Assembly: GCA_050273025.1 (NCBI GenBank)
Contig: CP158635.1
Span: forward strand, 20,956,001 to 21,020,000
DNA length: 64,000 bases
Origin: Cenococcum geophilum
Taxonomy: Eukaryota
Reading direction: 5' to 3'
The translations under genes were made by a program, and so were the position numbers. Below are positions 30,720-60,680 of this stretch, piece by piece; the stretch's first letter is position 1, and each line of letters begins with the position of its first letter. The notes beneath the pieces are model-generated. The model did not search any database, had not been told where the DNA came from, and worked only from the letters and a program-made list of their open reading frames with translations.

Positions 30720-33074
30720 GGACCTGTTTAGTTCCACTGGAGGTATTAGTTTCTAAATTGAGGTGGTCATAGCTTTTGGCGCATTTTAGTGTAATTCTTC
30801 TGCCGCGTCTAAGACGCTATGTTAATGGTGTAAAATTAAAGACCTGTTTAGTTTAACTACCATCTAGAAGTTAACGGAAGGACTACCTCCCTTACCTCTA
30901 CCTTCTATACCTACTACCTATATAATGTTAACGCGCACGCCTATACTAAGAGGCCCTATATTCTAAATACAAGACGAATCCACCTTATACTTACCCTTAC
31001 CCTTACCCTTACCCTCTAACTATAAGCGTTTAATTATACCTGGAGAAGGATAGAGGGGGCTGTTAGTATAGACTTTTAATATAAAGGAGGCTCTGCTTTT
31101 AGGCTTAATATTAAAGGCGATTAATAAGGGAATACGGGCCGATTCTAGCTATAAGAAGTAGGCGTGGGAGTATACCATGCAGGCTGTTTATAAAAAGGCT
31201 AAAAGGCCTAATATAGAGCTTAAGCAAATAAAATTAAAGCACGACTTATATAAGAAGGACTATAAGGCTTAGGTTAAGCTTAAGAGTTAATTAGGATTTA
31301 GGTGGGATAAGAGAGGCTATCCTACTATATTAAAAAAGGTCCTTAATAATTACTTTAAGGCTAATTTAGATGTAAGGAAGTTCCGATATAAGCCTCTAAA
31401 GCTTAAGAATCTGTACTACTAGTTATTTGCTAATATAATCGCCACTAGTAAGTAAGCTATAACCCTTAGTAAGCTTATAGAGGGCGATAAGGCTACCAAT
31501 GATAATTATATAGAGGATAGTACTGTTATTAGTTTAACTAAGCGCTTAACTATACCTAGTTAGTAAAGCTCTACTTCTAATTTAAATAAGGATAATAGTA
31601 CTGTTAGCAACTTAGGAAATAAGCAGCTACTAACGCTGCTTTTACCGCTAATACTTAAGCTAGGAAGAAGAAGAAGGACGGAATAATATTAACTAATTGT
31701 TTAGGTTAGAATCTTACCCAAATAATAAAGCAGCTTACTATAATAGTAGACTTAATAATAGATAAATAGGCTTAGGCGATTAAGCTATTTATAAATTAGT
31801 TTAAGGACCTAGAGTTTAATTAGTAGCTTATAGTCGTTACTAAATTTAAGAAGAAGTTTAGTATAAAGCCATTTGTAAACTTAGGCTAACGGAAGTATAT
31901 TTAGTAGGTTTATAAGCTATTAAGAGAAGCTAGTAAGGATATTAAGTAGATATATTAGATCCTAGCGTCTTTTAATAAGGACGAATGTATACAGCTTAAT
32001 CTTAATATTAAGGAATTTAAAGAGGTTAAGGAAGTTAAGGAGTAGAATCTTAATAGAGTTTTTAACGCTGTATATAATTAGCTTATTACTACTCTCTTTT
32101 TCCTAATATCTTTATAAATATTTGCCTATAAAAATAGGGATAGGGAGTTTTATTAGGCCACTCGCTTATAGAATTAAAAATATATAGCAGTAGTAATATA
32201 TTCTAAGATTTTTAAATAAAAGCTTTATATATTACTACTAGGACGTGTAGATATACGCCTATATTATATATCCAATTGCCTAGTAGTAGTCTTTCTACAT
32301 CTTATTCGCGATTTCCTCCCGCCGCTCCTATATAGGCCTTATATTAATTAAATCCTTATTATCTACCTCCAATAAACGGTTAACTATAGAACCCTTCCTT
32401 TATTGCTCTAATTCCTTATTACTAAACGGCTTAAAATCCTCCTAATTATCTATTATATTATAATGCGGATTGATGAGGTTATATATAGCAGTAAGTGCAT
32501 AAATTAGCTTTAATTAAGTGCGTAGGTTAAATTAATAAGGCCTATTAAATATCCTCTAACGGCGCTTAAAAATACTAAAGGTACGCTCTATTATATTCCT
32601 AATACTTAAATAACAATAGTTAAATAGTTTAAACTTATTATTAGGCGCTCTCTCTACCTTTTTAATCTCCTTTAGATAATACCTTACGCTTTAATATAGC
32701 GATAATATTATATTTAAATTGGTGTACCTAGTATTGGCAAGATAATATTAACCTAGAGGAGCTTTAAATCCCTTGCTTATAGCGTCTTTAAGAACTCTAC
32801 CGTTATAAGTAGAGCCTTCCTATCTAGGTAGAATATAGGTAAAGCTTATTCTAAAATTAACCACCGCTAGAACGTTTTATATAATATTGCCGTATTAATT
32901 TTAGTATAGAATCTGCTTATCTATAGGTATATAGGTAAAGATATATAAGCTATTAAGGGCGCTAATATAATTAGTAAAGTATAGCTAACACTTAGTAGAT
33001 TTAAGAATCTCCTTTAGCATCTCTATAGGTGGGGGTTTAATAATTTAATAGTAAAGGTATAATAGAGCGTCTAG
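30720..33074. mobile_element. PIF/Harbinger transposon (Myb/SANT-like ORF on +, ~30900-31950; DDE transposase on -, ~33074-32250), truncated by Gypsy LTR
   Basis: TAA followed by GGACCTGTTTAGTT terminus; plus-strand AWEYTMQAV..KHDLYKKDYKA..LGFRWD; minus-strand NVLAVVNF..EGSTYNGRVL..YYLANTRY..RYYLKE..NIIERTFSIFKRR. Confidence 0.85.
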
Positions 33075-36000
33075 TATAACGAAGCCTTATAGCAGGAACT
33101 ACGGTAAACTTATTAATAGGCTAGGTATATAGGTAAACAAGAAGTTAACAACGTAATAATAACTAGTGGAGTGGTTACCTAATAGATTAACTCTAATTAT
33201 ATTCTAAGATTCACTATAAAGAGAAGAACTATTTGGGTAGGGACTATAGTCCTTTAAATACATAACCGTACTCCTAAGAAATCCTCCTTATATATAAGGT
33301 ATGTCTTATATATAAGGTATATAAGTTCCTCTTATTCCTCTTATTTAATATATAGTACGTTATATAACCTTAGTTACTATTTCTCATTATATAGTTCTAT
33401 CGGCTCTATCCTAAACTATGCCTTAATTAACTAACTAGCTACTTTTAACTCCTTTCCTAGTAGTTATAATATTATACTTAAAGCGTCTATAACACTATCT
33501 CCCTCCTTTCTATCTTTATCCTTAAAGACGCTTAATATCTCTAAGTTGTTTATTAGAGGTGTAATATATATCTAATTAATTTAGTTAATATTATTACTTA
33601 TTATACCTAAAGCTTCTTTTTCTTTATACGCCTAACGTTATACCCGCACTATTACTGCAATATTATTGCTTAGTAAAATTATACTATCTCCGTGTTCTTA
33701 TTATGTAAAAGAGGAATTAGTTTATATTATATTAGCGAGCCTATCCTCTTAATAACCGTTTTCTTATTTAGAGTACACTAAAGCAAATATTTATTTATCC
33801 TATAACGTTTACTCTACTTCTAATACTAAATATACATGTCCTATTATTCTTAATAATTATTTAGTTCCTTAGTTAATTTATCTTAGGGTTTTATATTTAA
33901 TCTGCTGCTACTTATCTTAATAGTAAGTTATTTTAAGCTCTTATTGGGTTAAAATGTTCTTATAATACGGAATAGAAGGCCCTAAATACTTATATTACGG
34001 CATCTGCTTAATTACTTTGTCTTAAAAAGGGTTATAAGAAGGTTTATTTTAAGGAGTAGAAACTTATAGAATAAGGTTTATAGGAACTTAATAATAAAAA
34101 AATAGATTCTCTTTTAACCGGGAAGGAAATAGATCTAAGTAGTTTAGCAACTACTCTTCTTAGGTCCCCCTTAGGTGACTTATTTTTTTATAATCCTTTT
34201 TTATTAATGCTACTTAACCTAATCTCTTTTAATACTCCTATACCTTTCTTATAGCGTTTTTTAGATTCTTTAGTAGTTCCTAGGTAGTCTTATTATAGCC
34301 TATCTACTTAACCTTGTACTATATTTTATTATTAATATCCTTATAACTAAGAATTCTTAAAACTTACTATTTATCTTCCTTTTATTCTTTATACATGTCT
34401 ACCTTATAGACTAGTAGCTTAATATCCCTATATATTAGCTCTAGTATTATAATATACTATATAGGGTAGATCTTTATCTTAGCTAGTAGGTTTAACTTAA
34501 ACGTAACTGGTGAAATTCTTTATATAATTTTAAAAGGTCCTAGTCTAATATAGTCTAACTTCTTACTTAGTTATTAACTTTTGAAATTCTTATATAGTAG
34601 CTATACTTTATCCCCTTCCTTAAGATCTAGTCCCTTAGATCTCTTAGCGTTATAGTACCGTTTCATCCTTTCTTATACCTTTTTTGCTAATTCTATAAGG
34701 TCTATATAAAGATTTATTAGTATCTTTATTCTTTCTTTAGCTATACTACTTATTTTCTTTACTTATTATGGTAATAATGATATTCTTAGCTTATATCCAT
34801 AATTTACCTTAAATAGTAATATGCCTATTCCTTCCTATAGTGTTATATTATATATAAACTATACTATTAGTAATAATAATGCCTAATTATTCTATATATA
34901 ATTAATATAATATCTTAGATACTATTCTAGTGTCTAATTTAATTTTTCTATCTATCTGTTCATCTGCGGATAATATATAGTAAAAGTTGCTGCTCTAACT
35001 CCTTATTCTACTAAGAATACTTTTTAAAATACTACTATAAATCTTAAATCCCTATTTAATATAATTTTGCTTAGTGCTTTATATTTTATAAATACTTCTT
35101 TAATATAGATTCTAGCAATATCCTCTACTGAGATTTCTTCTATATATACTATAAAGTAGCCCTATTTAGTTAACTTATCTACTATTACTAAGATTATATT
35201 ATATTCTTATCTGGTAATAGGATCTTTTAACTTTAGTAGCTTAATAATAAAATTCTATAATATAACCTCCTATAGTCTTTTTAGTATTTTAATAGGTTAT
35301 AGCCCTCTGTATAGCCTATACCTTATTAATTTATTCCTTTAGTAATCTAGACACTCCTTTATTACTTTTTTAGCTATACTTTAGATTCTGTTAATAATAT
35401 ATTCTTCCTAAAGTCTTAATACTAAGCCTATTGCTCTATTGTGTCCTTAAGTTATTCCCTTATAGAAATCTTTTATAAAATGCTCTGCTATGCTTTTTAG
35501 GATATACTTTGCTTCTTAATTTATATATATATCTATCTATAGATCTTCTAGTTATACTTTTAGAATTCTTTATATTTAAAAGTTCTCTAGTATTTTATAA
35601 ACTTTTTTTAGTTTATTATCCTTTTAAGTTACTACTAGCTTAGGGTAATTATATTTAATTAATCTATCCTTATCTCTACGTAGTATTGCTTTTAATAGTT
35701 TCTTATTATTTTATAGTTTAACTTTTCTGCTAAGTATATCTGCCCTTATATTCTTAGTTCCTTTAGTATACTAAATCTTAAAATAGTATTCTATAAGCAT
35801 CTCTACCTATCTAATCTATTTTTAATTAAGTTCTTTTATTATTAGGAACCCTATTAGGTTTTTATAATCTATTTTAACTATAAATAGTTTCTCTACGCCT
35901 TATAAGAATACTCTTTATTTTTTTTAGTACTATAACTATACCTAATAACTCCTTATTATAGACGTTATAGTTTAACTCTAGTAGTGTTATCTTTTAAATA

Positions 36001-39000
36001 TAGTATACTACTAAATGCTATATATTCCTATACTTTTATAGTAAATATACTTTTAGTATAAAGTCTAATACATCCGTTTCTATAACCGTATCTAGTCCTA
36101 GTTAGTAGATTTTAAGGATTAGCTCCTAAGTAAATAACTCCTTAAGTTTCTTAAATAGCTTCCTTTACTCTTTTTTCTATACCTATAGTTCCTCCTTCTT
36201 TATAAGCCTAGTAAACGGTTTAATATTCTTTAACTATTATACTATAAACCTTCTATAGTAGTTACAAACCCCTAAAAATAACCTTAACTATATTATATTC
36301 TCTAGTTTTTACTAACTTAGTATAGCTTTAATATTTTTTAGGTCTATACTAATATAACCTAGTTTAATAATAAATCTAATAAAATTAGTCTTCCTTATAA
36401 AGAACTCATATTTCTTAATTACTACTAGCATTTATTCTTCTTATAGTTTTTTTAAGACCTATTTAACATATTCCCTATATTTTTCCTTAGTTATTAAGTA
36501 GATAATATTATTATTAAGGTATGCTATAATAAACTTATTAAGGTATTCTTTTAATATACTATTAATTCGTTTCTAAAATATTGCTAGTATATTTATTAAT
36601 CCGAATTATATAACTAATAGTTTATATAATCCTTCTCTTAATTTAAAGGCTACCTTTTATTTATTGCCTGCTTTAATTCTAATCTAATAGTATGCCTATT
36701 TTAGATCTATCTTTATAAAGATTTACGTATTACCTATTTAATCCTAAATTTTGCTAATTAAGGGTAAAGAATACCTATCCTTTTAAGTAATGCTGTTTAA
36801 CTATTTATAGTTAATATATAGCCTAAGTTTTCCGTTCTTCTTTAGTATAAATAGTACTAGATAACCTGCTAATAACTATAATAGTCTAATATATCCCTTT
36901 TATAAGTTCTTTTAGATAAACTCTTTAAGTGCTTTTAACTCCTTTTAAGTAAGCTTATAGGTTAGAAAGAACCTTAGACTTATTTCTAGTTCTAACTCTA
37001 TTTTATAGTCCTATACTATATAATTTACTAACTTTTTACTTTTTGGGCTCTATAGTTTCTTACTATATTTATAGTATCTTTTTAGTATATAACTTAAGCC
37101 TCGCTTAGTCTCTTTATATATCGCCCTAACTTAGTACTATACTAACTTAGTTTGCTATTATATTTTATAGCGTTAAGTATTTTTAATATTAACTTAACCT
37201 GTTATTTAATTAATCTTTAGATTATATTTCTGTAACTAAGGCATTCCTAATACTGCCTTATTCTATCCTAATAGTAGAATATTAAAAGATATCTTAATTT
37301 ATCTTCCTTTAATAGTTATTTAAATAGGTTTTATTTTAAGGTTAATAATACCTTTTTTATAGGCTATCGGATCTCCTAAAATTATAACTAATAGGTAAGA
37401 TTGTTCCTTCTACCTATAAGGTAATCGTATCCTTTTAACTACTACTAGTAAGATATAGTTCCACGTTACTTTACTATCTATTAATACTTTAAACTGTTAA
37501 TCCTACTATTTAATCCTTAAATTTAGGTATTATTCTTAAATTCCTTTAAGGGTCTAAGGCTTTATTACTAGCTCCCTTTAGTTTTATAGGCCTCTACTTT
37601 TCCTAACTATTAGCTACTTAATTCTTATATACTTAGCTTACCCTTTAGCTAATACTTAGTTCGCTTTTTATCTTCTATATACTATAGACATATATTCTTT
37701 AAACATTTCTACTACTATTATTTATCTAAGTATTCTTCTATAAGGAATCTTCCTAGTTAAAGTATTAGGTCCCCTAACTCTTAAACTTCTATTAGATACT
37801 ATCTATATATATATTTAGCATTTCTATACTATTACTTATCTAGCGCCTAATATATCCTTATAGGGTACTTCTAATTCTTTTCTTTTAGATTCTTATGCAT
37901 TTTATATATATTATCCACGCATATAATCTATAATAGCGTATAGTATACTAGGTGCTTTAGGTTAACTCTTAACTCGTCTTTATTTTTAAGTTTAAACCTT
38001 TACCATATTAATCTAAACGTTACGACTTTATTTATAAATACTAAGATATATTTCTTATTTCTCTAGATCCTTTAATGTTATAATTAAGGCTCCTTTAATA
38101 TAAGTTATGGCCTTTTTTATAATCAGGTGGTCCTAAATAACTCGCTTATCCATCTATATATAGAAATCTTCCTACTTATTATTATATTGCTATTTATACT
38201 ACTTTTAGTATAGCTATTAGAGTATATACGGCTTATTTATAAGGAAGTATCTTCTTATTACTGTATTATAACAGCCCTTTATATATTATTCCTTAAACCT
38301 AATAGGGATCCCTAAATCCTCTTCGTTTTCTAGTTTAGTAAGCTACTTAGCCCTTAGTATGCCTACCCTAGGCCTATTAGTAATTCTTTATATAGGTGCT
38401 CTGTCCCTTATACGACCTAGTATACTAGATCTTTTATCTAGTTTCTATTCTTACTATATAATAATTCTTTACCTAAATTCTTCTATAGTTTCTTTTGGTT
38501 TGCGTCTTATAAGTAAATCTTTAAAGTTCTCTTACTTCTTAATTATAGTATTAATATTTTAATCCTATTACTAAGCCTTACTTATAATTTCTTTAATAGT
38601 CCTTATTCTATTGCTAAAATCTTAGTCCTATAAAATTCTTAATCCTAAGCTTACTTCTATCTTAAGCTTAGCTCTAGCCTTAGTTTAATTAGGCTTCTCT
38701 AGTATTCTTATTTCGTCTTAAGAGTCTTAAATCTTACTTATCTTATCTTAAGAGTCTTATATTTTTAGGAAACTTTATTCTAAGCTTATTTATATATTAC
38801 TAAACTAAGCTATTACTCTACTCTATTAATTATTATCCGTTATAAGTTCTTAAGTTAATTTTATCCTATCTTAGGATTCTTAAACGTTTTATATCTCTTC
38901 CTAAGAATCTTAAGCTTGTGGCCTTTTACCTTTATTAAATACCGAAGTAGTTTACTATTTTACTTCTTTTGCGTTTTATAAAGTAATAGATATTATATCT

Positions 39001-39723
39001 AGTAGGGTCTTAATCCCTACTAATAATCCCTATTCTATAGTGGAATTATTCTTTACCTTTTTTTATAATATCTCTAAGGTCTATATACTCCTAATAAGCT
39101 GCCTTTATTACCCCATTATTATAGAATACTTTGCCTATATTAAATTTATTATCCTTAATATCTAATTTATAAGATAGTTTGTTGGTTTCTCTAAACTCTA
39201 ATAATTTTAGCTCTTATAGCTAATAGCTTACGCCATACTTAGCATTTTCATAAATTTAGTATGCGTTATTATAATAAAACATAAAACTTTTAATTAAATA
39301 TTCTTTTATTCCTTATAGTATATTATTATCCCTTTATATATATATATCGTCTACTAGTCTCGTTCCTTTTACTATATAGTAACTCTAACTACTTCTATAG
39401 TCTTTAATATAGTAACCCTATTTTCCGCAATTTATATAAGCTCCTTTTTTAAACCATTTTTCTTACTATAAAGTCCGCCTAAATATCTTCTGCTATTAAG
39501 ACCCCTAGTTTAGCCTCTACTTCTTAAACCTTTAATTACTTAATCCTTATTCTTTAGGTTTCTATAGTTATTTATTTTATTTCTTATTTTTTTTTGTACT
39601 ATTTAGGTCTATTAACTTTACGCTATACTATAGTTTTTAACTTTAGCTTTATTATTGCGTGCTCTGCGCCTTATATAACTATAGAACTTTATCCTAACCC
39701 TTTTTAGTCTGCTCTCTTTAGTA
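33075..39723 (-). mobile_element. Second long Gypsy chromovirus copy, 5'-truncated within gag; 3' LTR 33075-33494
   Basis: Reverse complement collinear with ~6800-12300; PPT aggagggagatag then TGTTATAG; LTR 3' half matches the family, U3 part diverged. Confidence 0.92.
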
Positions 39724-40399
39724 TATTGGCAAAATATGGTACCCTTCCAATGGCCTTAATGTTAGTGGTTAACGCAATTGGCGCGCAGTTAAGGGCATTT
39801 AGCAACCCGACCAACTAGCCTATGTTATGTTTTTTTAACACGCAGCCTGCGCGCAGCCTGCACGCAACCTGCAACTATAATTGTATTTGGAGCTATCTAC
39901 CTCTTTTGTACCAATAGTATATTTTAGATAATAAATAAAGGCTACTTTAAAGCTATTTATAAGGCTAATAAGGCAAATTATATATACTTCCTTATACAAT
40001 CTAATATATTATTTTAGACAATTTAATATAATATTCCAACTATTTTATAATATATTCTAAAAGCATAAGACCTTTCCTGCTCTCCCTGCGACAATAATAT
40101 AATATAAGTATTTAGCTTTACTAGCATAGCATATATATATAGCCAAAAAGTAGCTACTAAGAGTAGCAGATATAGGCCGAAAGAAAGGTAGATTAAGAGC
40201 TAGTATATATAATAAAAAAGCCGTAATTATCCTATAGAAGAGTATAGAAAGTCCTATACCTAATCTCCTACTAAAAACTCTACTAGCTTCTCTATACTAG
40301 AGTCCAGAGTATATATTATAAACTTTATATACTACTCCTTATTCTTAATTAAATTTAATATTACTTTCCCGTTATTATACTAGCCATAGCTATCCTCTG

Positions 40400-42400
40400 C
40401 AAGGCTATAGTATTACTTAAATTATATAAATAACTTCTTAGATTTAAACCTTTCTGGCCTAGGCTTGCCGGTTCTTATATTTAGGATAAAGTGATACACT
40501 AAGGCGAAGGATATATATTTTGCTAAATCTAACAAACTTAGCTAGTTCTAAAAGTTGAATTAGCAAATATTGTAGTAGTAGTAGTAGGGCCCTAGATTTT
40601 CTAGCTTACTCTAAAGCTCTCCCTTTAAGACGGACTTAGTGGACTAGTTTGGCCTTACTCTAGAGCTCTCTATTTAGGATAGACTTAGTAAACTAATCTA
40701 GCCTACTCTAGAGCTCTCCCTTTAAGACAGACTTAGTAGATTAAATAGTATAGCCCAGCTCACCAATAAATAGCCTAAGTTAATAATCGCGTTAGTTTTA
40801 TTGTTATTAAGGCTTACGAGGAACCTCTCTCTTATATTATCGCTTAAATCCGCTATAAGGTTGTTAAGGTTATCTTTATACAGGTCCTTAATAATTTCTA
40901 TAGTTAATTAATCCGGCATTAGGCCTGTAGTATATTTAATAACTATAGGCTAAAGCCGCAGCTAGATTCTAGATTGCTGTTTTCTAGACATCTGGTTCTA
41001 GCCGCCTAAAAGGTTAGCGTAGGCTTCTATAACGGGTTAGAGAATAATAATAGGTAGTAAAACACTGGATATGCACTAACTACTAATAACAGTGCTATAA
41101 AAGTTGTCCGTTTCCTTAGACCTAGTTCTATACTCCCTAATTATATAATATATTGCTATTAAAATAAAAGCAATAGTGTTGCTAGTAAGCTTTTTGAACA
41201 TATTATAAGAATAGGGTAATTAGGCAAGGCTATTCCTTCCTTTACCGTAAAATATACTAGCTATACTAGCAACTATCGCGTTAGAACAGAAGCGGTTATT
41301 ACTTAGCTATTAACTCTTATTAGTATTTTACTAAATAGTATAGGTAAAATACCTTTGTATAATCTAGCGCAATAAAATTATAATTAGTTAGTAGTTCCAT
41401 AATTAGCTTAGGCGCGTTGTTAAACCCTAGCCTATATACTTCCCTTATAACTATATAAGCCTTTATAATTACGTAGTTCCTAAAGTTCCCTATTGCGTTA
41501 AATAGCTATATATAATATTAAGATTGTTAGTAAATAATTTAATATAATATTTCCAGTATATAGATACCTTATAAGCGGACACCAGGTTAGGAATATAATT
41601 AGCTTTTTTTATACTACTTTTAGCTACTTTAAAATGGCTTCTAACTATGCCTTTTTTATTATATCTTTAATAAGGCCTGGAAAGCGGTTAAACTATAGGT
41701 TAATAAGATGCCCGTTATAAGTCCTAGAGTTAGTTACTAGCCTTACTAGTAAAATAGACCTATAAAGCGTAAATATAGGCTTATGTCTCTTAGGTGGGTT
41801 TTCTTTTATACGTCGCCGTTATAATGTCTAGAAGTACTCTTCTCTTACCTATAGCGCGGCAGTTAGGTTAAAATCGTCTTTATAGTCTAACTTGCCCTCA
41901 CTTTCCCTAGTACTATTTAGGTCCCCTTTAGATTAAATACTAGGTTAGTGTACTCTATATTAAAGGGAGGTTACTTATTTTATGGACGAAGCTATATTAG
42001 GGTTTAGGCGGATACGGCTTACTAAAGAGAATGTAAAGCTAAATATTAGTTGTTTACGCGATAAGGTATAAATTAGGCGCATAGGAGAGTATTTTAAACT
42101 AGCACGCAATTGTTTACGCGGTAAGGTACGGATTAGACATATAGGAGAGTATTTTAAACTAATACGCAATTGTTAAGAGCCGGAGGTATATTATAAAGAT
42201 GCTGCTTTTTATAGCGGTTGGCGGTTAGATAGTAAAGAGAGTATTTTATTTACTAGGGCCTACCGAGTGCTAAATAGTAGAGGAGACTATTAAGTATTGC
42301 AGTTAGACTCCGGTTATGTATAAAGGTATAACCTACTTTAACTAAAAGATTAGGACTTCGCGTCTTTAACTAAGCTAGTTTTACTACCAGATCATTAATA
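40400..42400 (-). pseudogene. RIP-degraded hypothetical gene, possible DUF6532-like domain
   Basis: Relic NNRFCSNAIVASIASIFYGKGRNSLA..KLTSNTIAFILIAILYIIREYRTRSKETDNF; family assignment from recalled motif resemblance only. Confidence 0.4.
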
Positions 42401-43249
42401 AATTTAGTAGATTTATTAATATTTAGTTACTATTGTTTTGTAAAAAAAGCAGGTATAGACTCGCAGTTACTATTCTTATTATTAGAGATTACCCTTTTTA
42501 GCCAGAGGTGGCCATATACATTCTATATATTGTTAGCCAGCTTAATATATTATATACGACGTTAATAAGATCTATTATATACCTACTCCTCTTTATACCC
42601 AGATATAACTAGACCAGAGTCGCTATTCTTATTATTAGATATTACCCTTTTTAGCCAGAGGCGGCTATATATATTCTATATATTATTAGCCAGCTTAATA
42701 TATTATATATAACGTTAATAGGGTCTATTACGTGCCTACTCCTCTCCGCGCCCAAATATAACTAGACTAGAGTTGTAATATTACTTATTCTAACTGGGTT
42801 CCACATGCTCGTTCTAGCTAGGTTTTATATACTCGTTCTCTATTAGCGCGTTCTTTCTTCTATTAGCTAGGATATAGGCAACTCTTAGTAGTAGGCTAGG
42901 TAGAAACGTTAGGTTAATTATACTAGTTATCCTCGTTTCCTTATATACGTTAACTTAAAGTAGGGTTCTTACTACTAGTTTAAGTGTTTAATAATACGTT
43001 TTTACGTTTACCTACTATAGTAACACTCCTGTATTTGCCTAGTTAGTAAAAGGTATAGCTTATAGCTAAAATAGGTTACCTTATAGCTGTTTTTGTAATA
43101 TCTAGGGCGTATATAGATTAATAACTTAAAAGAATATATACTGGTATAGTATATATTAGACTAATAGCAGTATTAGTAGGAGTATTATTACTATAGTGCT
43201 TATAAATAACTTAAATAGGGGTGTATTTATTATAACTAGCTACTAGTTC

Positions 43250-44900
43250 TAACCGGTTACGGTTAAGCTATAACCGTACCCTATTAACTCGCGTTAAGTT
43301 AGTAGTTAAGAAAATATTATTATATAGTTAAAGATTATCTAATACTATTTACTATTATACGCGAAACTATTTTATTTTATTAGCATATCCCTTAGTAGAT
43401 ACGGTATAGGTATATAAAAGGTTAAACGTTAATCCCAGCAACAAAAGTAGTAGGCTGGTAAGGCTTATATCTAAATTTAATAGAGAGGTACCTTATTAAA
43501 CCACCTTACCTACCTAGGGTGCCGGCTTTTAGATCCTATACCTTATTCCAGTCTACTTATACTAGATTTAACACCCGTCTCGCGCTTAAAGCGAAGCTTA
43601 TCCACCTTATCTATACAGCTTACTAGTGTAGATAATGCTAGGGTAGGTATAGGCAGTATATAGGATAGTAATAACACTTCTATATAGTTATATCGCTATA
43701 TTCTACACCCTTATATAATACCTAGTATTTCTACCATAAATATCTAACGTTATTCTTCCGTATTATTAACCCTACTAGCCTATAATAAGCCTAACCTATC
43801 CCCTATATATGTATCGCAATAGTAATTAAATTTAGCAGAATAGTAAGGAAATCGTAAGCATAGATATAAGGATTAGGTATTAGATACTAAGAGCGAGCTA
43901 AGGATAGTGTTAACATATATTACCCTAACAAGTTTACTAAAAAGAATAGGTATAAACCTTAGGCTTTGTTATCCAATCCCCTTAGGCGTTTTAAGAATGC
44001 TAGATAAGTTATAAGAATATCCTAGGATATATTATTCTAAAACTCCCTCGCCTAATAGCACACCGAAGGACTCTAATATTAAGCCGTCTACCTTTATATA
44101 TAGTAGTTTATTAAACCAGTAAGTATTCTAAATAAAGTAGTGGCTTTAAGGCGCATAATCTATGCTGCGGTTATAGTTGCCTTCGCCTTTTCTATTGCGG
44201 GTTAAGGCGTAGAGTAAGGGCTCTTTTTTAACTAGGAGAGGTTTTTTAGGACAGCTATAGGTTAAGTATCGCCTTAGTATTAACCTATTTACCTATTCTA
44301 CCTATTCTTATATATATAGAGTGCGAGTTATCTAGTAAAGGCAAGGGTGCGGAAATAGAGGGTAAGTAATTATATCGTTCTTAGCTGGTAGCGCAGACTG
44401 TAAATACGAGTTAGTAATACTAAATTAACTTTAAGCAGTAACCTACTTATTCTTCTTTATTCTATTATAAATAAAAATCTATCCATTTTTTTATAGAAAT
44501 ATATCCTTAACCGCACTACGTTATTTCTCTTTATTTATAAGCTGAATTTGTCCTCTAGCTATCTTATTACTAATATAGTAGTAAAGCGTTTCGATTTTAG
44601 GATTAAAGTTAATATTCTAGCCTAGTATGTCTATAAATGTATTAAAGCTTAGATTATTAACGTATATATCTAGGGCGTTATTCTTACTAATTACTAGCTT
44701 TTAGGTTAAGATAATTATTAGCTCTTTATTAGCTGCCCATCGGATTAGTATTATTATTATCCTATATAACCTTAGTATTCCCTCTTACCTTATTGCCTTT
44801 AGTATACTAGCTGGTAGATAATATACAATAGCGGAGTGTAGGAGTACTAGGTTACCTATTATAATTTACCTAATAAAAGCTGTTTTGTTTATTTAACGCG
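43250..44900 (-). pseudogene. One or two RIP-degraded hypothetical genes
   Basis: Long single frame broken mainly by TAA/TAG attributable to RIP (DIYVNNLSFNTFIDILG..; NTYWFNKLLYIKVDGL..; VRWFNKVPLY..PAYYFCCWD); no recognised TE motif. Confidence 0.45.
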
Positions 44901-45369
44901 TTGCGTTATAGCTACAGCGCTAGGCAAGTTATTTAATATATTTAGTATATAGGTTTTTAGGTAAACCTAGAAATATAGATAGGAATTCGTTAAAGATTTC
45001 GTTTAATATTTACTATATTTATGCCTTACTTATAAGGGAGCGTAGTAGCTATCTAAGGAGCCCACGCGTCGACATTTTAATTTTAACATCATAGTAGATC
45101 GTATTGTATTGTTTATTCATAACCCTAAGATCTCGCTTAAGAGTGTCTTTAGTGTTATAGCTTAGGTCTATTATTAGTGCTATAATTCTAAAAGCGTTAG
45201 GGGAGGTGTAATAGGAAAAACGTCTTAATTATACGCTAAGACCGATGTACAGGATTGTGTAGATAGGTAACTATATTATTTGGTTATATATAAAACAATC
45301 GGTTAAATATCTTATAAGAAATAAATAAGTATATTAGCGAACGCTTCTCTACCCACTACACTACTTAGA

Positions 45370-46710
45370 CTTATAAGCCTCCTCCTATCTATTTTATATC
45401 TCCTCCGTCTTAACAAGCTTAATTTAACATCTAGATTTGTTAATACTTTATATATATATAAATTTAATCTCCATTATATTATACTACGTATAATACTGCA
45501 TATATAGCCTCTAAGCTATGGCGCTATAGTTCTATATATATAAATCCCTTCTAGGCAGCTTAATATATACTAGTAACTATATTTGTTAATACTTTAAGAC
45601 GCCTAGTTAGCCCTTAACTGGTAGAGCCTAGTTAGCACAATTAGAGGTCCTAACCTCCGCTAAAATACTTAATATCCCTAATAAGGGCCAGAATATTATT
45701 AGCAAAAATAGAGATATTCTACTATAAGTTAATAAGATCTTAGGTCCGTTTAGCTTAACGGAGAAGTATCTAAGCTTTTAGTACAATCTTCTAAGAGAAG
45801 ACACGATTAAACCGTTAAGAGAGGTAGTGGTTTAAATTAAAGTAAACCCTTTTAGTTTGCTAGAATCTGGATATAGTAATAGAATCGGTATATATAAATA
45901 GGTAAGCATGCTACAATTCTAAAGTAGTTATCCCCTAACATCTGCAAGGCCTATATTAGTTTAGTAATATTTTTACCTTAAGGGCTAGTAATCCGCGTGG
46001 CGTTCTTACTTAGGAGAGTAGGGAAGATAATCCGTTAGGATTAGTTAAAAAGACTAGTTACCAAGTCTCTAGTTGCTTTAACTCCTAAGACTAACATTTT
46101 TCAAATAAAATATATACTCGCAATAGCGGCGGTAAGACTATTAGCCGTATTAGAACAGAATCCTCTAAAGGTTAACTTATTCTTTAAGACCTAAAGAGAT
46201 TAAGATTAACTTATCCGTATTATAGATAATAGTTAAGGAACAAACTAGATTTTACGAAGTTAGTCGCTATACTATATTAGCATTATAAAAGCTAATAAGA
46301 AAGCTGTAAGTGTGCAATATTTTCTAAATAAGAAGATATTTAACCATTAATAGATTCCCGTTATTAGAACACCTTATTTAAGTTTAATAAAATATTAAAG
46401 CACTATAATACGTTATAAATAAGCCTTATACGGATCTTAGCTTAATTATAGCTATTAAGGATGCTTCCTTATTTAAGAATATTTATATTCTTAAAGACTA
46501 GCCAGATATAACTACTATAGGGCTTAAAGCTACTGCGCTAAAACGAGTTCTTATAAAGCGTCTTATAATAATCTAAGGACCTTTAGGCACTAAAAAAACG
46601 TAGCTTTAAAGGCGTTACTCAGCAATATAACAATAGGAGATTCCCCCATTATTATTATATATTATATAAACTATACGCTAGACCAGTTATCTAGGTATAT
46701 TGCTTAAAGT
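45370..46710 (+). pseudogene. 5' half of Hrr1/SAD-3 (ZNFX1-like SF1) RNA-silencing helicase gene, RIP-degraded, introns retained
   Basis: A*LAQLEVLTSAKIL..VNKILGP..YNLLREDTIKPLRE..[intron ~45902-45948]..IRVAFLLRRVGKIIR*D*LKRL..LVALTP..AVRLL..LEQNPLKVNLFF..FYEVSRYTILAL..[intron ~46306-46353]..LKRVLIKRLIII*GPLGTKKT (Walker A relic)..PIIII..NYTLDQL. Confidence 0.82.
45451..45580 (-). mobile_element. 130-bp LINE 3' tail insertion
   Basis: 16-bp TSD atttgttaatacttta (45435-45450, 45581-45596); reverse complement matches ~14495-14600. Confidence 0.88.
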
Positions 46711-46829
46711 AACCGTTTTAATACTATCGCTTATACGGATAGACGATATTACACTATATTGGGCGCTAGGGCCGTAGGGGTAAAAAGAAGAGGAAGCGTT
46801 AGGGCTCCCTCTTTTTATATCTTATATTT

Positions 46830-47010
46830 TATATTATCCTGCCATTGTCCTACTATTATATTATATTGTCCCATATTATTCTACCATTATCCTACTATTA
46901 TATTATAGTATCCTGCCATTATCCTATTATTATGCTATATTGTCCTATTATTATCCTACTATTATATTATATTGTCCTATTATTGTCCTGCCATTATATT
47001 ATATTATCCA
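46830..47010. repeat. Minisatellite (attatcctgcc/attgtcctat units)
   Basis: Visible degenerate tandem repeats. Confidence 0.85.
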
Positions 47011-47605
47011 ATCCCCATACCTAAAAGAACTGGAGCTCTTGCTGTACCTGGCCCAAAAAGACTAAAACCAACTAAAAGAACCCTGCAAAATACCTAGAGA
47101 AACCCCCTAAAATGCATGCATCGCAGGGGAGGTATACGTTAAACGACGGTGGTTCGCACTCGCGCGTGACCGCCAGAACTACGCCTAGCAATGGCCCTCC
47201 ACAATAAAGACGGGCGAATACCATACTATAAAGCGGAAATACCCTTATTAAGAAGGCATCGGATAAAATATAAAGCCTATTAGACGCGTCTAGTACCTAA
47301 AACTATAGGGGAGTAACCGTCGGCTATAACAATTTAACGCAGCTAGTAGAATAGCTCCGCCAGTCTAGCGAACCTTAGGCGCCCCTTTAGTAAACCCTTA
47401 ACTAAATCCCCTAATAGCTAAGTAAAATTAAAAATAAATAAAAACCCCCCTTACCGGTAAACCGCACCTGGGCCGCTATAGCTACGCTACTATAATATAG
47501 GGATCTTACCCCCCTTAAGACAATAACTGGGTATATAATTATAATATAACTAAATATAGAAAAAGCAGAGGGGCTTAGGGGATAATTAAAAATAAAAGTC
47601 CTTAT

Positions 47606-47724
47606 CCCATGCGCCGTCGATATAGGCGCTATGGTAAGCGAACCAACCAAATCGTCTAGATTTTTGATGTTCTGGTGTTTGCGCACGGGCCACAAATCAT
47701 GGTAGCGCCTCGACGGCGCATGGG
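47606..47724. mobile_element. 119-bp MITE with piggyBac-like CCC...GGG ends
   Basis: Perfect 15-bp TIR cccatgcgccgtcga / tcgacggcgcatggg; AT on both flanks; not RIP-mutated. Confidence 0.88.
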
Positions 47725-50700
47725 ATAGAGATCTGTAAAGAGGTTTACGACGCTATTATAATCCAATACCTTAGAAGCGGAGATATTAGAATTACCCTAA
47801 AGGACTAATAGGCAAAGGAATAAGCTATAAGGGTAGGGGATAGGCTAGGAGAATATATTGGCTTAAAAGTACTCCGTAAAGACTACCTAGTTAAAGTCCT
47901 AGCGGTTCCTATAAGCCTTAGGGTAGAAAAGGAACGCTAGGCGGATAATATAGCAATTATATAGGAGATAGTAAGATAAACGAAACGCCTTATACTAGGA
48001 CTTAAGATCACCTAAATCTAATAGCTTTAATAGAAAAATGTAAACTAAGCAAATAATAAAAATAATAAGAGGATATAAGGGTTACTAAAGACTTACCAGG
48101 GAGACGCTGGACGAACGTATAGCTCCCTTATTATTAGTATATATACACTAGGAATATAAAAACTCCTTATTTAAAAAGGAATAATTATAAACGGCCTTAT
48201 ATATAATATAAGGCTCTATAACTATAGACTACGCCTAAAACAATGCTATCGCTATATATAATAGGGATATACCTAATCCACATATATAGTATAGGTGTGC
48301 TATAGCCACTATATAGGTCCCTATAATATAAGATACTGCTTAAATTAAGACTAAATAAAATGTGTAAACTGCTACTAAAGTATATATAAGGCATAGGAGA
48401 GAGAAGACTGTATTAAATACAGGAGATAAAAGGTAAGGGCTTAACAGCTACGGGAATAACTACACGCTAGGTTATATAAATAGAAATAACGGGCGATAAG
48501 CTAGGGGGGCGTAAGTACCTTCCTAGTATTTCCTACCTTTAATACTAGGGGGCTAGGCTAGCCATCTTAAGCCTTAATGGGCTAGAAGTAACGCTGTGCG
48601 ATATTACTAGACTATATAGGAATATAAGGGTTATAGGGGATATAAGGGAGAGGACGCCCTATAGGAAGACCCTTATAGACAGCTATAGCAAGCTTAAGAC
48701 CAGGATAATTAAGAATTAGACTTAACGCGGCAAATATAATATTTATAGCCAACTCTTAAAGGGTATATAGCTAACTAGTAAGAATAGGGGAGGAACTGGA
48801 GATAATAATAGATTTAGATATAGAAGCGCTAGTAGGAATATAAGATATAGGAATAAAAAGCTTTATATAAAATAAGTAGTAACTAGGGTTTAGATATAAG
48901 AGATAGAAGTTCTAAATATCCTGGAGAAAGTAGAAATAGAAGAAGTAAGGAATAATAAAAAGGTAAAAGACCCTTGCTAGGGGTCCATCACCTATCTATT
49001 ATATAGTATAACTATAGCAATACAAACCACCGTCTTGTAAGGCCCTTACTAGACAGTTTAGACCTAGAGAAATACTATATCCTTACTATATAAGAGCCGT
49101 ACTATAATACCTACATATAATCGATATACTGCCCCTAAGGATTTTAGCTCCTATATAAACCAAAAGTAGTTACATGCGTATACTTTATAATTAGTAAGGC
49201 TATTAGCCTATCCTTATAGTTATAGCAGGCAGTTAATCTAGATATTATAGTTATAACAATCCAGATATATAGGGGTCCGGTATAAATTATTAATGTATAT
49301 AACCCTAGGGTTAAAAGTATCCCACAAATGGAGAATATTATATTAGTAATAAGCTTACTTAAAACCAAAGGCATAGAGTCTATTCTATTAGGAGATATAA
49401 ACCTCTACCACCCGCGGTAGGGGGGTATCTATATCATTACTAAACGGTAGGTAGAGTGCCTACTAAAAGCTATAAACACCTAGGGCCTTAAGCTGGCTAC
49501 CCCTCCTAGAGTAATTATATGGTAATAAGGATCCGCCAGAAGTATAATTAACCTTAGATTTATAGACGAAGGCCTATACTAGAGACTTAAAAGGTATAAC
49601 CCTAAAGAAGAATAGGCACTTATTTTAGACTATATCCCTATCTAAATACAGCTAGATTTAGACATTAAGGCGTAACTAAATAGTAAAAGATATATAATAA
49701 GGATGCTTAAGGCAAACAGTTTCCTTAATATAGTTAAATAATAACTCTAAGACCTAGAAGAAATCCACCTAATACCAAACAAGTAAGGCTTATTAGCTAC
49801 CCCTAAGGAAATTAACCGAAGACTAGAAAGAATCTAGGCAGCAATTAAAAATAGGCTAAAAGAGTACAGCCCGGTCTTAAGACCGGGCCCCTATACGTAA
49901 TATATATAGTCCACATAATGCGCGGTTTTTATAGCTAGCTAATAATAAGTAAAAAGGAAATATATAAGCAGCCATAACCTTAAAGATAAGAGACGATATA
50001 AAGACATAAGAAACTAGTTAAAGAATATCCTAAAAAAAAAAGTAAGGAATAACTAGAGACAGTTTATTAAATATTACGTGTCTATACATTGCTTGGCCGA
50101 AAACCCTACAACTTAGGTATTTAACTAGATGTTTAACACGGTTAATAGCATTATCGCTTGCAACTGCACTTAATAGGTTGTTCTTTTTATCATAGATTAC
50201 TTGCGATTAGTGTTCTGAGTGGCCTATATAATTTATTAAGGCCTATAACCGACTTTTCAGCCAATAGTACCCGCTCGAAAACTCCTCGCTTAACTGCCCT
50301 ATTATCTACCTCCTTATCTACTATCCTATTTACCAAACATACTATAGTTTTATCTTTAGAAGAAGAAAGAGCTAGGAAATAAAATAAGAGGGCCTAATAA
50401 CTCTATAACCTAGAGATCTAAAAGAAAGAGTAGGAGGAATAGGCATAGATCCAAAAGACGGAATAAGAGGAATAGGCACGGATCCGAAAGACGGAATAGG
50501 AAGATGAGTTTTACTAGGCAAGGCTAGCCGCTCTAAAGCAGCCTACTCCACTAGAGCACCCCTCTACCGCTAAGGCGGACGAACTAGGTAAGTCCTATAA
50601 CCTACCGGAAGGCTTGGGCACGCTTAAGCTTAACCTCCCTAGCCTAGCTAGAAGAGACCTCTACGATATATAGAAAGGATCCTTCCGCTTAGAGAATCTA

Positions 50701-52775
50701 GCACGTCTATAGGTATACTTTAGCCGCCTAGACCTCTCTAATATAGCTATTATTAAAAACGGAAAACTTGTTTTAAAGAGACCTACTACTAGCCGCAAGG
50801 TCTACAAGAATAAGGAGGTCTGGTTTACTAGGTTTATAAACTATATAGTAATTATAAGCACTCTCTATATATGCCTAACCAACCTCTATATAAGGATATT
50901 GCTCTAGATAAATAAGATCCGTAACTACTCTATAACCTATAACTAGACCTCTATTCTGGACCTCGCACTTAACTATTATAGGTACATTATAGATCGCAAT
51001 TAGCTTAAGCCTAGTAACTGGGACATGCCTACCCAGTTTAAGGCCCTATACTGCCGGGCGGCTAATATAAAGGCATAGAGCCAGGGGCTTAAAGTCCGTA
51101 GTATAGCATTAAAGAGATCGCGAAAGAATACCTCCCCTCCCCCTACCTCTAATAAGCCCTATTACAGCTAGAACAACTAGTAGGCTTATAGAGATAATAT
51201 ATATCGTTACCGCTATATATACTCTAAATGCGATAAAGACCACCCATTAAAGTTATGCCCTAGGTAGCTTACCGCCGTAAGTAGTTAGACCTAGGATTTA
51301 ATGGTGGATAAAGATATATTCCTAGGTTTAACTATCTAAATAGACCTACTACAGGCGCTAAGGCTTTAAGGCAGGCCTAATTTAGTACCTCTTTTTAAAA
51401 CTTACTTATAAACGACTTTTCTGGCCGACTTACTATTACCCCTAAGGCCTCTTACTTAGAGTACGCTTCTTTATAAGTACCCTAGAAATCTCCTAGCAAT
51501 TTTATAAGGCATCCTTACCTATGGGGCAGAGATAGGTACCTCATCACCTATTCTATCTAGTGTCTGCAAAAACTACCTCTCCTTATACAATAACGAAGAC
51601 CTTATCTTTAAAAAAAATCGTTACCAACCTGGCCCTAGGCCGTATACAGGCCACCAACTCTATAGTTACCTTATCCCTAGGCCTAGTGCCTAAGGCAGAT
51701 AGCGGCTTCCGCCGTATTTACAACCTTTCCTTACCTAAGGGATCCTTAGTTAATGACTCTATTGACCTAGCCTGGGCAACACTACACTATACCCAGGTAG
51801 AGACTATACTAGTATACGTAATTACAGCTAGTAGGGGCTGCTACCTGGTTAAACGAGATATTAAAGATGCCTTCCGGATTATGCCCATCTTAGTGCGGTC
51901 GCGTTACTTACTCAGCTTTATCTGGAAGGGAGTCACATACGTTAAATACTATCTGCTATTTAGCTTACAAACAGCCCTATTTCTCTTTAACTTATTCGCT
52001 AAAGGTCTTTACTAGATCCTAGCACAATAGATTAACTTTACTATTAAGCACTACCTTAATGATTTTATATTTGTGGTTAAGTATCCAACTATACTGCTAT
52101 TACTAAGGGAGGTATACCTCTCGGTTACTAACTAGCTAGGGGTACCCCGAAATAATATTAAAAATATTAAAGGTATAGAGGCTAAAGTACTGGGTTATAC
52201 GATTAATACCGCGGCAATAGAGATAAAACTCTTACTAGTTAAGCAATAGAAAGCTATTAATTAGGTGACCAAAGCTCTTTAGATAGGCTGGCTATTATTA
52301 CAGCAAGCCTAATAACTGGCGGGCCGCCTAGTATAGTGTACAAAAGTTATCCGCCTTAGGCGCTCGTACTCTCGCTCCTTATAGGACTTTATAATAAAAT
52401 GGCCTATTAGGCTATTAAGATATACGCACCAGCGCCTCCTCCTAGAGCTTAAGGAAGACCTTAACCTCTAGCTTAAGGTTCTTATATTAAGTAATGGTGT
52501 ACTATTCTTTAATAATAAGGAGAGGCTATAGTTTTACTTATTTACTAACGCCTTATCACTTAAAGGCTATAGAGGCTTCTACTTTAGCGGAGAGAATGGC
52601 TATTAGCCTAATTACGTGGCTTCCCTGCCCCAGGCCCAGGCTTTTAGCTATTACCCCCTGCTAGACTAGGCGGATAACTATATTAACCTAAAAGAAATAT
52701 ATGCTATCGTAAAGGTATTTAAAAGGTGGTTATCGGTATAGCGGTATGGGTCTCTCTATATTTATATAGATAATA

Positions 52776-54626
52776 ATAATAATTCATTGCTTAACGTCCG
52801 ATTCGGATCCCTATTGGGCCCACGCGGACTACTCCTTATATACATGTGGGGAGAAAACTCTATTTGAGAAAACCCCGTGATCCATCTCCCCGCCTTATGG
52901 GACTCGCCTGCGAGGCGCCTGCGAGGCGCCTGCGAGTCACCTGTGGTGCTCCTGCTACCTTACTTTTTGACCTCCTTGGGAACCACTGCTGCCGTAACAA
53001 GCCTACGGACGCGCTAGTATCGTAAACTTTGCTCTACTGCTATAGAGTCATCAGGGGGCACCCGTTGCTCGCCCCCCTGCCTTTTATTGCCATTTCCTTT
53101 GCAACCCGGCAGGTAGTTATATATTAGCTATAATACAGTAGAGTTCAACATACCTGCTTATCCAGGCCTCTACCCCAGTTTTCCAGTGGCTTATTCCTAC
53201 CCTTAGGCGTTACCACCTTCTACGGTTAAGGCCGGGCCAAAACCTCTCCCGCCTGAGTAACTCCTGTTTGCTCCTTAAGCATATCTCACCAGCATACTGC
53301 CCTAGAGGCGAACGGTCCCGTCTGTTAATATACCGACACGCGCATCCGTTCTCTTAAGCCACGTAGCAGTCTCTTTAGCCAGGATGTAATCCTGCCTGCC
53401 TACTAGGTGCACTAAGGGTTAGAGCCTAGCTAAGGGGTAAGGTCCTTAGAGCCAGCAGTAGCTGCTACGTACTACGCCCCGCAGGAGACTAGTAGTAGTA
53501 TAGGGGCGTAACACCCTATACTACTGCTAGTTCCCGTTTTGTGTTGCCTGTAGGAGTCTCCTTATAATAGGCCGACCGTGTCTTGTAGGAGGGGGCCGTA
53601 GAGACGCTAGGTCCCGTGCCAGGCAACCTACTTCCCCCTCTCCTACTAACCAAGCTTGTGTCCCCCCTTCCTATAAGCTGGCCTATGTCTCTAACTATCG
53701 AGTCCTCATCCAACTGGCCTGTGTTTCCCCTACAGCCTCCCCTATATATATGCATTAGGTTACGTGCACCACGCCTATTAAGACCCTCCTGTGAGTCGCC
53801 TTATACATATGCATCAGGTTGCGTGCACCACGCCTATTAAGACCCTCCTATAAGTCACCTTTTAACGCCATAGGGCCGTCGAAGCTGGCCTGTGTTTCTG
53901 CTGCCTAGAGCTTTACCCGTGTTTCCACCTCGTTAAGCCGTCTAGTCGCCGTCGCGTCGCCGTCGCGTTGCTGTCGCGTCGCTGTCGCTGTCAACCAGGT
54001 CACGCGCACTACGCCTATTAAGACCCTCTTCTAAGTCACCTAGGTGTACCGGATACTAGATAGGCCCTTAGAGGGGCCTTAACGAGTTCTCTAGGTAGGG
54101 CCTTAATAAGTTCTTCGCGGTGGCCTTAGGGCCTTAACAAGTTTCGTATAAAGTATCTACGACGCGTTAACCTTAACAAGTTCTTATAAGAAGAGGTTCC
54201 CTATACCCTCGCCGTATCCTCTCGGTCTTAGAGCTAGTGCAAGCCCAAGGGTGTCCTGTCGTACGCCTAGGACGCGTCCGCATCCGCTGGCTTAATAAGG
54301 CCAGTTTCGGCCCTAGCTACGAGCTAGGTAGTCGTACGTCGGGTGGTTTTCGTATCCCAGTTTCCCTTAATTGATTGCCTCCCTAGATAGTAGAGCGGGA
54401 GCCTCAAGCGGAGGCAGTGAGGCTCCTGGTGGTGTTGGGGGCGATGCTTTGTACGATGCTTCGTACGCGTCGCGAGCTCAACACCACAGAACCGCGACGA
54501 CAGCGCGCTGCACGCGCTGCGACGGCTCTCTACCATCGCCTCTGCACTTGGCCATCGTAAGGAAGGTTTTCCTGATGATGTTTCCACCCGCGGCGACGTG
54601 GACGCGTGCAGTAGGGCTTCGCGGGC
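52776..54626 (-). mobile_element. 1.85-kb GC-rich non-LTR (TPRT-type) insertion in the Ngaro RNase H
   Basis: 14-bp TSD ttatatagataata (52762-52775, 54627-54640); (TTA)n-like tail; 3' ~290 bp homologous to ~59255-59538. Confidence 0.8.
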
Positions 54627-59200: not shown

Positions 59201-60349
59201 CTTAAGGCAGTTACCTAGTAGCTTATTAGCTAAAATATACTAAACTAGTTTTAGGTTATAAAGGAAATAGTAATAGAGGGCGGGGGGGCGAGTAACGGGC
59301 GCCCCCTAATAACTCTATAGTAGTAGAGTAAAGTTTACGATACTAGCGCGTCCGTAGGCTTATTACGGCAGCAGTAGTTCCTAAGAAGGTTAAAAAGTAA
59401 GGTAGTAGAAGCACTATAGGTAACTTATAGGCGCCTTATAGGCGCCTTATAGGCGAGTCCTAAAAGGCAGGGAAATAGATTACGGGGTTTTCTCAAATAG
59501 AGTTTTCTCCTCACATGTATATAAGGAGTAGTCCACGTCTATAGGAAAGTCGTAATACTTAGCGTGGTGTTAAACTTAAGGTACCTCTGCCACTACGGTA
59601 GTAGAGACACCCCAAATTTCTAATAATTAAGATTTTGGACTATAGCAGATTAACTACTTACTAAAATCTAAAATCTAAAATTAAGTTAATCCTTTTATAA
59701 GGCTTTAGATAAGCTTTGAGCTCCTAATTTAAACTAACGCTAAAACCTTAGTTTAAATTCTATATATAGTATAGCTTGCGAATTTAACGCGCTTGCTAAT
59801 CTAGAGAAGCTTTTAAATTAGAAAGTCACCAGATTAACTAAACAATTATCTTAGAATTAGATTTAAGCTTTAGATTAGATATATTTTAGGGCCTTTAGAT
59901 TTAATCTAAAGTCGCTACTAAACGTTCCCTAAGATTTAATATAGGGATCTCTCCCTAAGGATCTGGTTTGATCGTAAGGTTTAAAAAGGGGTTATAATTT
60001 AGTTAAATTTATAAGATTACATTCTAAAGTCCTTATAGCGTAGTGGTATAGTACATTCTACCTCTTGCTTTAATTTAGAGCTAGCCCAACGTAATTAAAA
60101 CTTGGCATAAAAGAGCTAATATGCTTAGTATATAATACTAAGATTTTGTTAAATGTATAACTTTGGGCGTTATAAGATATATATAAAAATATAAGCTTAA
60201 TTTAGAGCCTTACTAACGCCTAATTTAATAGGAAATAACCTTCTTTTTTAATATTTTTAATATATAATAAGTGGGAATTAAACCTACTACGCCTAGAAGT
60301 TAAACTCGCGACGTTTAATTGCCTAATCTGGCTAGGAGGCTTGGCGGCG

Positions 60350-60680
60350 ATATAATAGGCTTAATAACGTGATAAGGCTTAATGGCGATGCAATAAGACT
60401 CGGCAATATAATGAGACTTAATAATGCAATAAGGCTTGGTGATATAATAAGGCTTAACGGCAATATAATAAGACTTAGTAGTGTAATAAGACTTAATAAT
60501 GCAATAAGGCTCGGCGATATAATAAGGCTTAATGGCGATGTAATAAGACTTAGTAACGTAATAAGACTTAATAATACAATAAGGCTCGGCAACGTAATAA
60601 GGCTCAGCGGTAATATAATAATACTCGGTAATATAATAAAACTTAATAATATAAAAGTCTTAGTGATATAATAAGGCTTA
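60350..60680. repeat. 18/21-bp tandem repeat with 75-bp higher-order period
   Basis: Units ataag(g/a)ct(t/c).. in a 21+18+18+18 pattern, visible as 7-6-6-6 residue periodicity in the ORF track. Confidence 0.85.

Follow-up and report, generated by a model that had tools for sequence, protein, structure and literature searches.

A 64,000-nucleotide stretch of Cenococcum geophilum DNA (hereafter the window) carries a mutated piece of a helicase gene among repeats, and the question raised by this locus is where the piece came from and whether it has acted on its host. The original prediction, made from the letters of the window, described a RIP-killed, intron-retaining fragment of a genome-defence helicase and proposed that a silencing gene had been captured or duplicated at the DNA level, with an extra copy that could suppress silencing or draw RIP onto the native locus. 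With a probability of about 90%, the fragment is a dead transduplicate of the host's own helicase gene, captured once by a DNA-transposon-like element, amplified and RIPped.

Identity and parts of the helicase fragment

From its similarity to known proteins, the DNA at 45317–46707 on the + strand is classified as the first third of a ZNFX1/Hrr1-type SF1 helicase gene, reaching through Walker A and motif Ia. It comprises 1,269 nt of the gene, from the start codon to codon ~388 of ~1160, with both introns retained. A Pfam scan of 44001–48001 in six frames, with stops read as X, returned ZNFX1 as the sole family above cut-off (PF25396 at 45967–46200, E=3.2e-07, 30.7 bits, cut-off 27). By far the best protein match to the window was P0087, a Glonium stellatum protein of 1162 aa (tblastn E=2e-78), which aligned on the + strand in five collinear pieces: aa 1–27 at 45321–45401, aa 41–143 at 45590–45898, aa 144–223 at 45946–46185, aa 225–349 at 46187–46600 with a 16-codon gap, and aa 350–388 at 46588–46704. 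These two matches place the predicted helicase homology far beyond chance. A helicase piece is present as predicted, but its limits were corrected from 45370–46710 to 45317–46707, with the start codon at 45321; likewise the piece is N-terminal and extends through Walker A, but what had been called a half covers 388 of ~1160 codons, a third of the gene.

Among 391 tblastn HSPs from 120 helicase-family proteins, 383 fell within 45300–46800 on the + strand. A profile built from 79 family members matched at 45572–46707 and was confined there to profile positions 32–378; positions beyond 378 had no match anywhere in the 64-kb window. The 8 HSPs elsewhere in the window (E 0.085–0.63 where listed) were not confirmed by the profile and were rejected as noise. 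When the RIPped exon was used as query in a word-index protein search, one protein was returned, the lichen-fungus helicase P0001, which as a query itself led to 1,153 helicase relatives. The nearest solved structure to P0087 was ZNFX1 (9q9z, E=1.8e-122), with UPF1 at only 1e-34.

Walker A survives as the remnant GPLGTKKT at 46577–46600, where the native gene has GPPGTGKT, and motif Ia as INYTLDQL, aligned to TNHALDQL. The AAA_11/AAA_12 helicase core is incomplete in the fragment, which ends at codon ~388. The core is present in the parent gene, as PF13086/PF13087 precomputed in relatives and as full-length matches in L066 and L045, two native loci described below. Since the fragment ends before a complete core, it is a piece of a family member and not itself a member. 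Naming was kept at the level of the ZNFX1/Hrr1/SAD-3 family, following sequence-based membership and the names given by the sources, in which Hrr1 acts in RNAi heterochromatin assembly and SAD-3 in meiotic silencing by unpaired DNA, and Neurospora crassa has at least three paralogues in the SAD-3/Hrr1 helicase family (PMC5384783).

The captured gene start (native nt -3 to 129) lies at 45317–45449 (+) with 79.7% identity to L066; its start codon at 45321 is mutated to ATA, and 15 of 27 residues are identical to P0087 aa 1–27. The remainder of exon 1 (P0087 aa 41–143), delimited by DNA alignment to the native gene, occupies 45581–45901 (+), with 56 of 103 residues identical to P0087. Next comes a retained intron of 47 nt, GTAAGC..AAG, at 45902–45948 (+), which is also found in L066, where its counterpart GTAAGCATGC...TGCAAG lies between two tblastn pieces. 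Exon 2, with the ZNFX1 domain PF25396 (47/80 residues identical to P0087), extends over 45949–46306 (+) and is followed by a second retained intron of 48 nt, GTAAGT..TAG, at 46307–46354 (+). This intron appears as a 16-codon insertion with in-frame stops after aa 264, matched at the same place in both L066 and L045. The truncated exon 3, containing the Walker A remnant and the motif Ia region, covers 46355–46707 (+) and ends at native nt 1265. Both predicted GT..AG introns were therefore found, the second, with its in-frame stops, also in the intact gene, and their retention means that the capture was made at the DNA level.

The gene start is separated from the rest of exon 1 by a LINE-like 3' tail of 130 bp at 45451–45580 (-), absent from the native gene and flanked by a 16-bp target-site duplication, ATTTGTTAATACTTTA, at 45435–45450 and 45581–45596. 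The insertion, also recognised in the original prediction, is 85% identical over 121 bp to window 14494–14614. That second copy comes after an ORF end reading YWVPSH..N.IADKLAK (~13713), a type of ending which we take to be a fungal LINE motif, and which gave an RNase H match below cut-off (E=0.023). The label "LINE" was drawn from this weak match together with the motif. The surrounding interval, 13401–14625 (+), has the appearance of the 3' end of a LINE-like element with an RNase H-like ORF end.

Native gene, RIP and the other copies

Metagenome contigs were scanned with a RIP-tolerant pattern, coded as purines and pyrimidines with 16 bases fixed by codon constraints. At least 100 loci were recovered, all matching P0087: at least 2 intact full-length genes and at least 98 RIPped fragments. 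Copy number and the intact gene thus refer to metagenome contigs and related sequencing runs rather than to the window's own assembly, and one metagenome may contain more than one strain. By contig names, for 80 loci listed, one assembly held at least 52 fragments and 1 intact gene, and another at least 21 and 1. All 98 fragment loci consist of the N-terminal part alone, at GC 0.27–0.43. Self-comparison of the window revealed no second copy of the fragment within it.

L066 and L045 contain the full helicase gene (aa 1–1162) at GC 0.48, un-RIPped. Their captured interval resembles the rest of the gene (GC 0.473, TpA/ApT 0.61 and 0.60, CpA index 1.25 and 1.30), and differences between the two native alleles number 24 in its 1269 positions, against 55 in 2435 elsewhere (1.9–2.3%). 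Seven stop codons in each locus lie within intron-like insertions, and one or two stand opposite residues; the latter were taken as probable alignment artefacts beside 3' introns. The suggestion that the extra copies had drawn RIP onto the native gene was not borne out, since both loci are un-RIPped and allele divergence is no higher in the captured interval.

The window fragment was aligned to L066 over 45317–45449 and 45571–46707, with 1019 of 1270 positions identical. C>T (117) and G>A (99) changes account for 216 of the 251 differences, the remainder being reverse transitions (21; T>C 14, A>G 7) and transversions (14). By context, 128 of 176 CpA sites were changed (73%), 60 of 122 CpG (49%), 13 of 167 CpT (8%) and 15 of 135 CpC (11%). 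The fragment has GC 0.31, TpA/ApT 1.58 and (CpA+TpG)/(ApC+GpT) 0.44, read against the usual thresholds for RIP indices. The target of RIP is duplicated, with 98 other copies and dozens of contigs per site in single-strain runs. The fragment is wrecked by RIP, and the heavy C>T/G>A damage noticed at the outset is confirmed by the counts and both indices. It further carries many stops and, relative to the native gene, deletions of 2 nt (46186), 9 nt (46526–46532) and 13 nt (46599); the 2-nt and 13-nt losses are frameshifts. None of the three deletions was mentioned in the original prediction.

The window as a whole, its first 2 kb excepted, is AT-rich and RIP-affected; the signature was present in 31 of 31 two-kb bins from 2001 on (TpA/ApT >=1.34, (CpA+TpG)/(ApC+GpT) <=0.74). 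Such a setting, and the absence of the gene's 3' part from the window, would also suit an original single-copy locus that transposons had overrun and that RIP, spilling over from nearby repeats, had destroyed. This reading of the fragment as the native gene in decay, the sole copy at its syntenic position, is hardly credible. At least 98 other copies share the same limits, lesions and carrier, the intact full-length genes are on separate contigs, in DNA of normal GC, and single-strain runs have dozens of contigs per site. It was rejected as already contradicted by the copies, the intact genes and the contig depth.

Counting the window copy among 99, 60 copies begin their homology to the native gene at nt -3 and another 3 at -1; the homology ends at native nt 1265 in 71, the others being short or truncated loci. 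Deletions are likewise shared: the 2-nt deletion by 87 of the 99 copies, the 13-nt by 71, and a 3-nt and a 6-nt deletion by 51 each. An insertion at the LINE-tail site is present in all 57 copies that span that site, so the LINE tail is older than the amplification. In alignments of 900 nt or more with 67 copies, the window fragment is 86.4–93.3% identical (median 90.7%), compared with 78.8–79.0% to the native genes.

Contigs from public sequencing runs were aligned to 38001–54000 at >=80% likeness, and within single-organism runs 18–54 contigs lay over each listed variant site between 40137 and 47078, also across 45777–46908. Long run contigs (19.5, 8.4 and 5.8 kb) match 45581–46440 only, at ~82%. 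Among the matches listed for run X1, from the likely source strain, there was no native-like long contig. A phmmer search returned two 60-aa ORFs from ENA metagenomes, P0124 and P0188 (on contigs of 639 and 941 nt), which are 74% identical and have RIP-type replacements in common with the window. In both, the reading frame continues across the position of the 2-nt deletion, so that the founder lesions are not all common to every copy, and some copies may descend from a stage preceding that deletion. Taken together, the common limits, deletions, LINE insertion and position in the carrier argue for one DNA-level capture, followed by amplification and RIP.

The source of the captured DNA was considered in the same comparison. 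An element could have brought the helicase fragment from another species, and according to PMC13004909 large fungal elements can pass between species. Once RIP-type changes are excluded, however, 35 of 1270 positions separate the fragment from the native gene found alongside it, the native alleles are themselves 1.9–2.3% apart, and the closest named homologue is only ~78% identical to the native protein. We consider horizontal transfer very unlikely. A search with P0087 residues 1–400 listed no protein closer than 63% identity, and the parent gene of the lineage was thus not seen among database proteins.

Further comparisons bear on whether the fragment could still act on its parent. It was captured without a promoter, as homology begins 3 nt before the ATG. 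The window copy has no 21-mer in common with either native allele (longest exact match 17 nt); of the 98 remaining copies, 60 have at least one and 38 none, with a median of 1.5. At about 79% identity, the window copy has drifted too far for a homology-based interaction with the native gene. The evidence points to the window copy as inert debris, and the proposal that the fragment suppresses silencing is not supported, in view of the un-RIPped native gene, the lack of a common 21-mer, the 79% identity and the uncaptured promoter.

The carrier element and its inverted-arm variant

The fragment had been placed inside a block of transposable elements, and it does lie within repeated DNA: its flanks are common to the copies, which have the same left terminus and unrelated outer flanks. 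By these features the carrier is best described as a large (>16 kb) DNA-transposon-like element. Its left part, at 39724–47005 (+), is collinear with 32–98 metagenome copies over 39.75–47.0 kb, and collinearity falls to 0–5 loci on either side. The captured fragments sit 5.6–7.0 kb from the left end in all copies. The left terminus reads TATTGGCAAAATATGG... at 39724 in the window (CATCGGC... when de-RIPped); in other copies the de-RIPped terminus, CATCGGCAAAATATGG..., is preceded by unrelated sequence. Of the 17 alignment rows shown, 16 have a common first base of left-end homology; L068 departs from it. With individual copies used as the reference, nothing was shared further left (0 of 37–47 possible loci), and sharing to the right extended over >10 kb. 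Just inside the terminus, at ~39830–39880, a subterminal array rich in GC was observed, built of CGCAGCCTGCG-like units, the number of which varies between copies.

A coding remnant similar to DUF6532 lies in the carrier at 41088–41348 (-) (PF20149, E=4.2e-07, 30.5 bits, cut-off 24, stops read as X), and no Pfam family besides this one and ZNFX1 was detected in window 40001–48001. In the RIPped copy L020, Pfam gave nothing from +2000 to +6000 (six frames) or from +6000 to +10060 (minus frames only), positions being counted from the pattern match. The carrier's transposase may be further than +10 kb away, or its sequence too decayed. When the left terminus was sought in inverted orientation within +10 kb, the matches were confined to the left ends themselves. 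That the element was mobile is concluded from the common left end with unrelated flanks, in a carrier for which a transposase and right terminus were not found.

A minisatellite with periods of 11, 21 and 32 was located by TRF at 46825–47009. The fragment had been described as truncated before a minisatellite; one is indeed there, but it belongs to the carrier, being present also in L020 at +901 to +1076, and helicase homology stops 118 nt before it. The carrier breaks at ~47005 and resumes at 59539, from where it runs off the window at 64000 (+), with L020 +1486 to +5819 aligning at 73–88%. About 12.5 kb of other repeats were thus inserted into the window copy; 13 loci bridge 59539–60400 unbroken.

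Several other elements were recorded around the carrier. The block that interrupts it begins with the repeat at 47079–50282, which reached 10–25 times the carrier's summed contig depth in all four runs. The adjoining 50283–52418 was well covered by contigs in runs X1 and X5, with little or no contig cover in X6 and X9, and may vary between strains. Reading of the translations by eye picked out a tyrosine-recombinase-like stretch, KTDKTHSGVNI..., at ~55648 (+) and a LINE-type reverse-transcriptase-like stretch, ITLENTLSKILEKV..., at ~57465 (+). To the left, a retroelement interior of 5.5 kb is present in two inverted copies, 86% identical, at 6798–12294 and 34183–39726, with LTR-like flanks at 2990–3810, 12605–13414 and 33072–33896; its copy at 34183–39726 adjoins the left end of the helicase-bearing carrier.

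Loci with at least 2.6 kb of downstream sequence numbered 69, two of which are native loci. In 36 of these 69, an inverted copy of native nt 790–996 follows the sense arm at a distance of ~1.3 kb; in L020 this ~200-bp arm is at +1772 to +1965 from the pattern match (locus 11772–11965), and the same arrangement is found in the 35 other loci. Over 194–199 positions the arms form 168–183 Watson-Crick and 7–13 G:U pairs, with a duplex energy of -247 to -258 kcal/mol, where shuffled sequences gave -39 to -44. On this modelling, the arms of one carrier sub-family could form a long hairpin, and a sense-plus-inverted layout is one from which hairpin-RNA genes arise. The window copy is without the inverted arm, and 13 loci, all from one assembly by their contig names, bridge the corresponding site exactly in the same way.

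The inverted arm is the sole evidence that keeps alive a reading in which the transposon silenced its silencer. In one form, the founder would have been a "silence-the-silencer" device, in which small RNAs from the hairpin knocked down the Hrr1/SAD-3-type helicase and aided copy number before RIP acted, the arm being lost later from the window's sub-family; this is highly unlikely. The broader proposal, that read-through antisense or hairpin RNA knocked down the host helicase, or that an unpaired copy made the gene silence itself in meiosis, until RIP destroyed the device, we regard as distinctly unlikely. In its favour are the 36 arm-bearing loci and their persisting ability to pair, the naming of the helicase family by the sources after an RNAi helicase, and a precedent in rice CACTA elements with miR820 (PMC3459959). 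It is opposed by the arm-less window copy and its 13 bridging counterparts, by the uncaptured promoter, by the intact, un-RIPped native gene, and by the scarcity of common 21-mers. Moreover, transposons often capture gene fragments without function. With this cargo and layout, whether a transposon can silence its silencer becomes testable in fungi through small-RNA data.

Under the preferred reading of a dead transduplicate, a single DNA-level event would have copied 1,269 nt from the start of the host helicase gene into an element of >16 kb, and the founder copy would then have gained the LINE-tail insertion and small deletions. The element would have amplified to at least dozens of copies before RIP mutated every copy, and the window's copy would later have been split by nested insertions. 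The limits of the capture, its many copies, the marks of RIP and an intact native gene in related strains are observed directly, whereas the sequence in which these events took place, and that the fragment no longer functions, is what we infer. The predicted DNA-level capture or duplication of a ZNFX1/Hrr1-type gene agrees with the retained introns and with the occurrence of copies inside a repeat.

Comparison with known systems

A limited keyword-based search of the literature returned no report of this helicase capture. As regards the carrier, its left end resembles the 5'-CATCA of PlavakaB DNA transposons, for which Kojima 2025 (PMC12730594) gives the termini 5'-CATCA..TGATG-3'. The fifth base of the carrier, however, is G (A in RIPped copies), a Plavaka transposase was not seen within the searched spans, and the right terminus and its 2–3 bp duplication would lie outside the 10-kb flanks.

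Silencing genes have been drawn into comparable histories elsewhere. In rice, CACTA transposons carry pre-miR820, which targets the de novo methyltransferase gene OsDRM2 (PMC3459959). There, as here, a DNA transposon carries sequence of a host silencing gene, and the layout of the arm-bearing variant could yield double-stranded RNA. The present case differs in that all copies are RIPped, that the window variant is without the inverted arm, and that it is known from DNA alone. In Zymoseptoria tritici, a DNA methyltransferase gene was amplified and RIPped, the original was inactivated and cytosine methylation was lost (PMC6710886). That gene is the known example of RIP drawn onto a native silencing gene, whereas the native helicase gene described here has no RIP signature.

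The closest precedent is the capture of histone H3 by a hAT transposon in Pseudocercospora fijiensis and its relatives, in which RIP struck hundreds of copies and left the original intact (Dhillon et al. 2019, PMC6710886). By analogy, the helicase capture would be an event of a known kind: in both cases a DNA transposon, or an element resembling one, took up a duplicate of host gene sequence, which was amplified to many copies in AT-rich blocks and RIPped, while the original was kept. The cargo differs, being one third of an RNA-silencing-type helicase gene with introns instead of a housekeeping histone, as does the carrier, a far larger, DNA-transposon-like element of which one sub-family adds an inverted partial copy. 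The locus can be read as a clear further case in which a fungal DNA-transposon-like element copies and spreads a fragment of a host gene and RIP kills the copies while the parent survives, with a cargo that goes beyond the routine, since it comes from a helicase family linked to RNA silencing.
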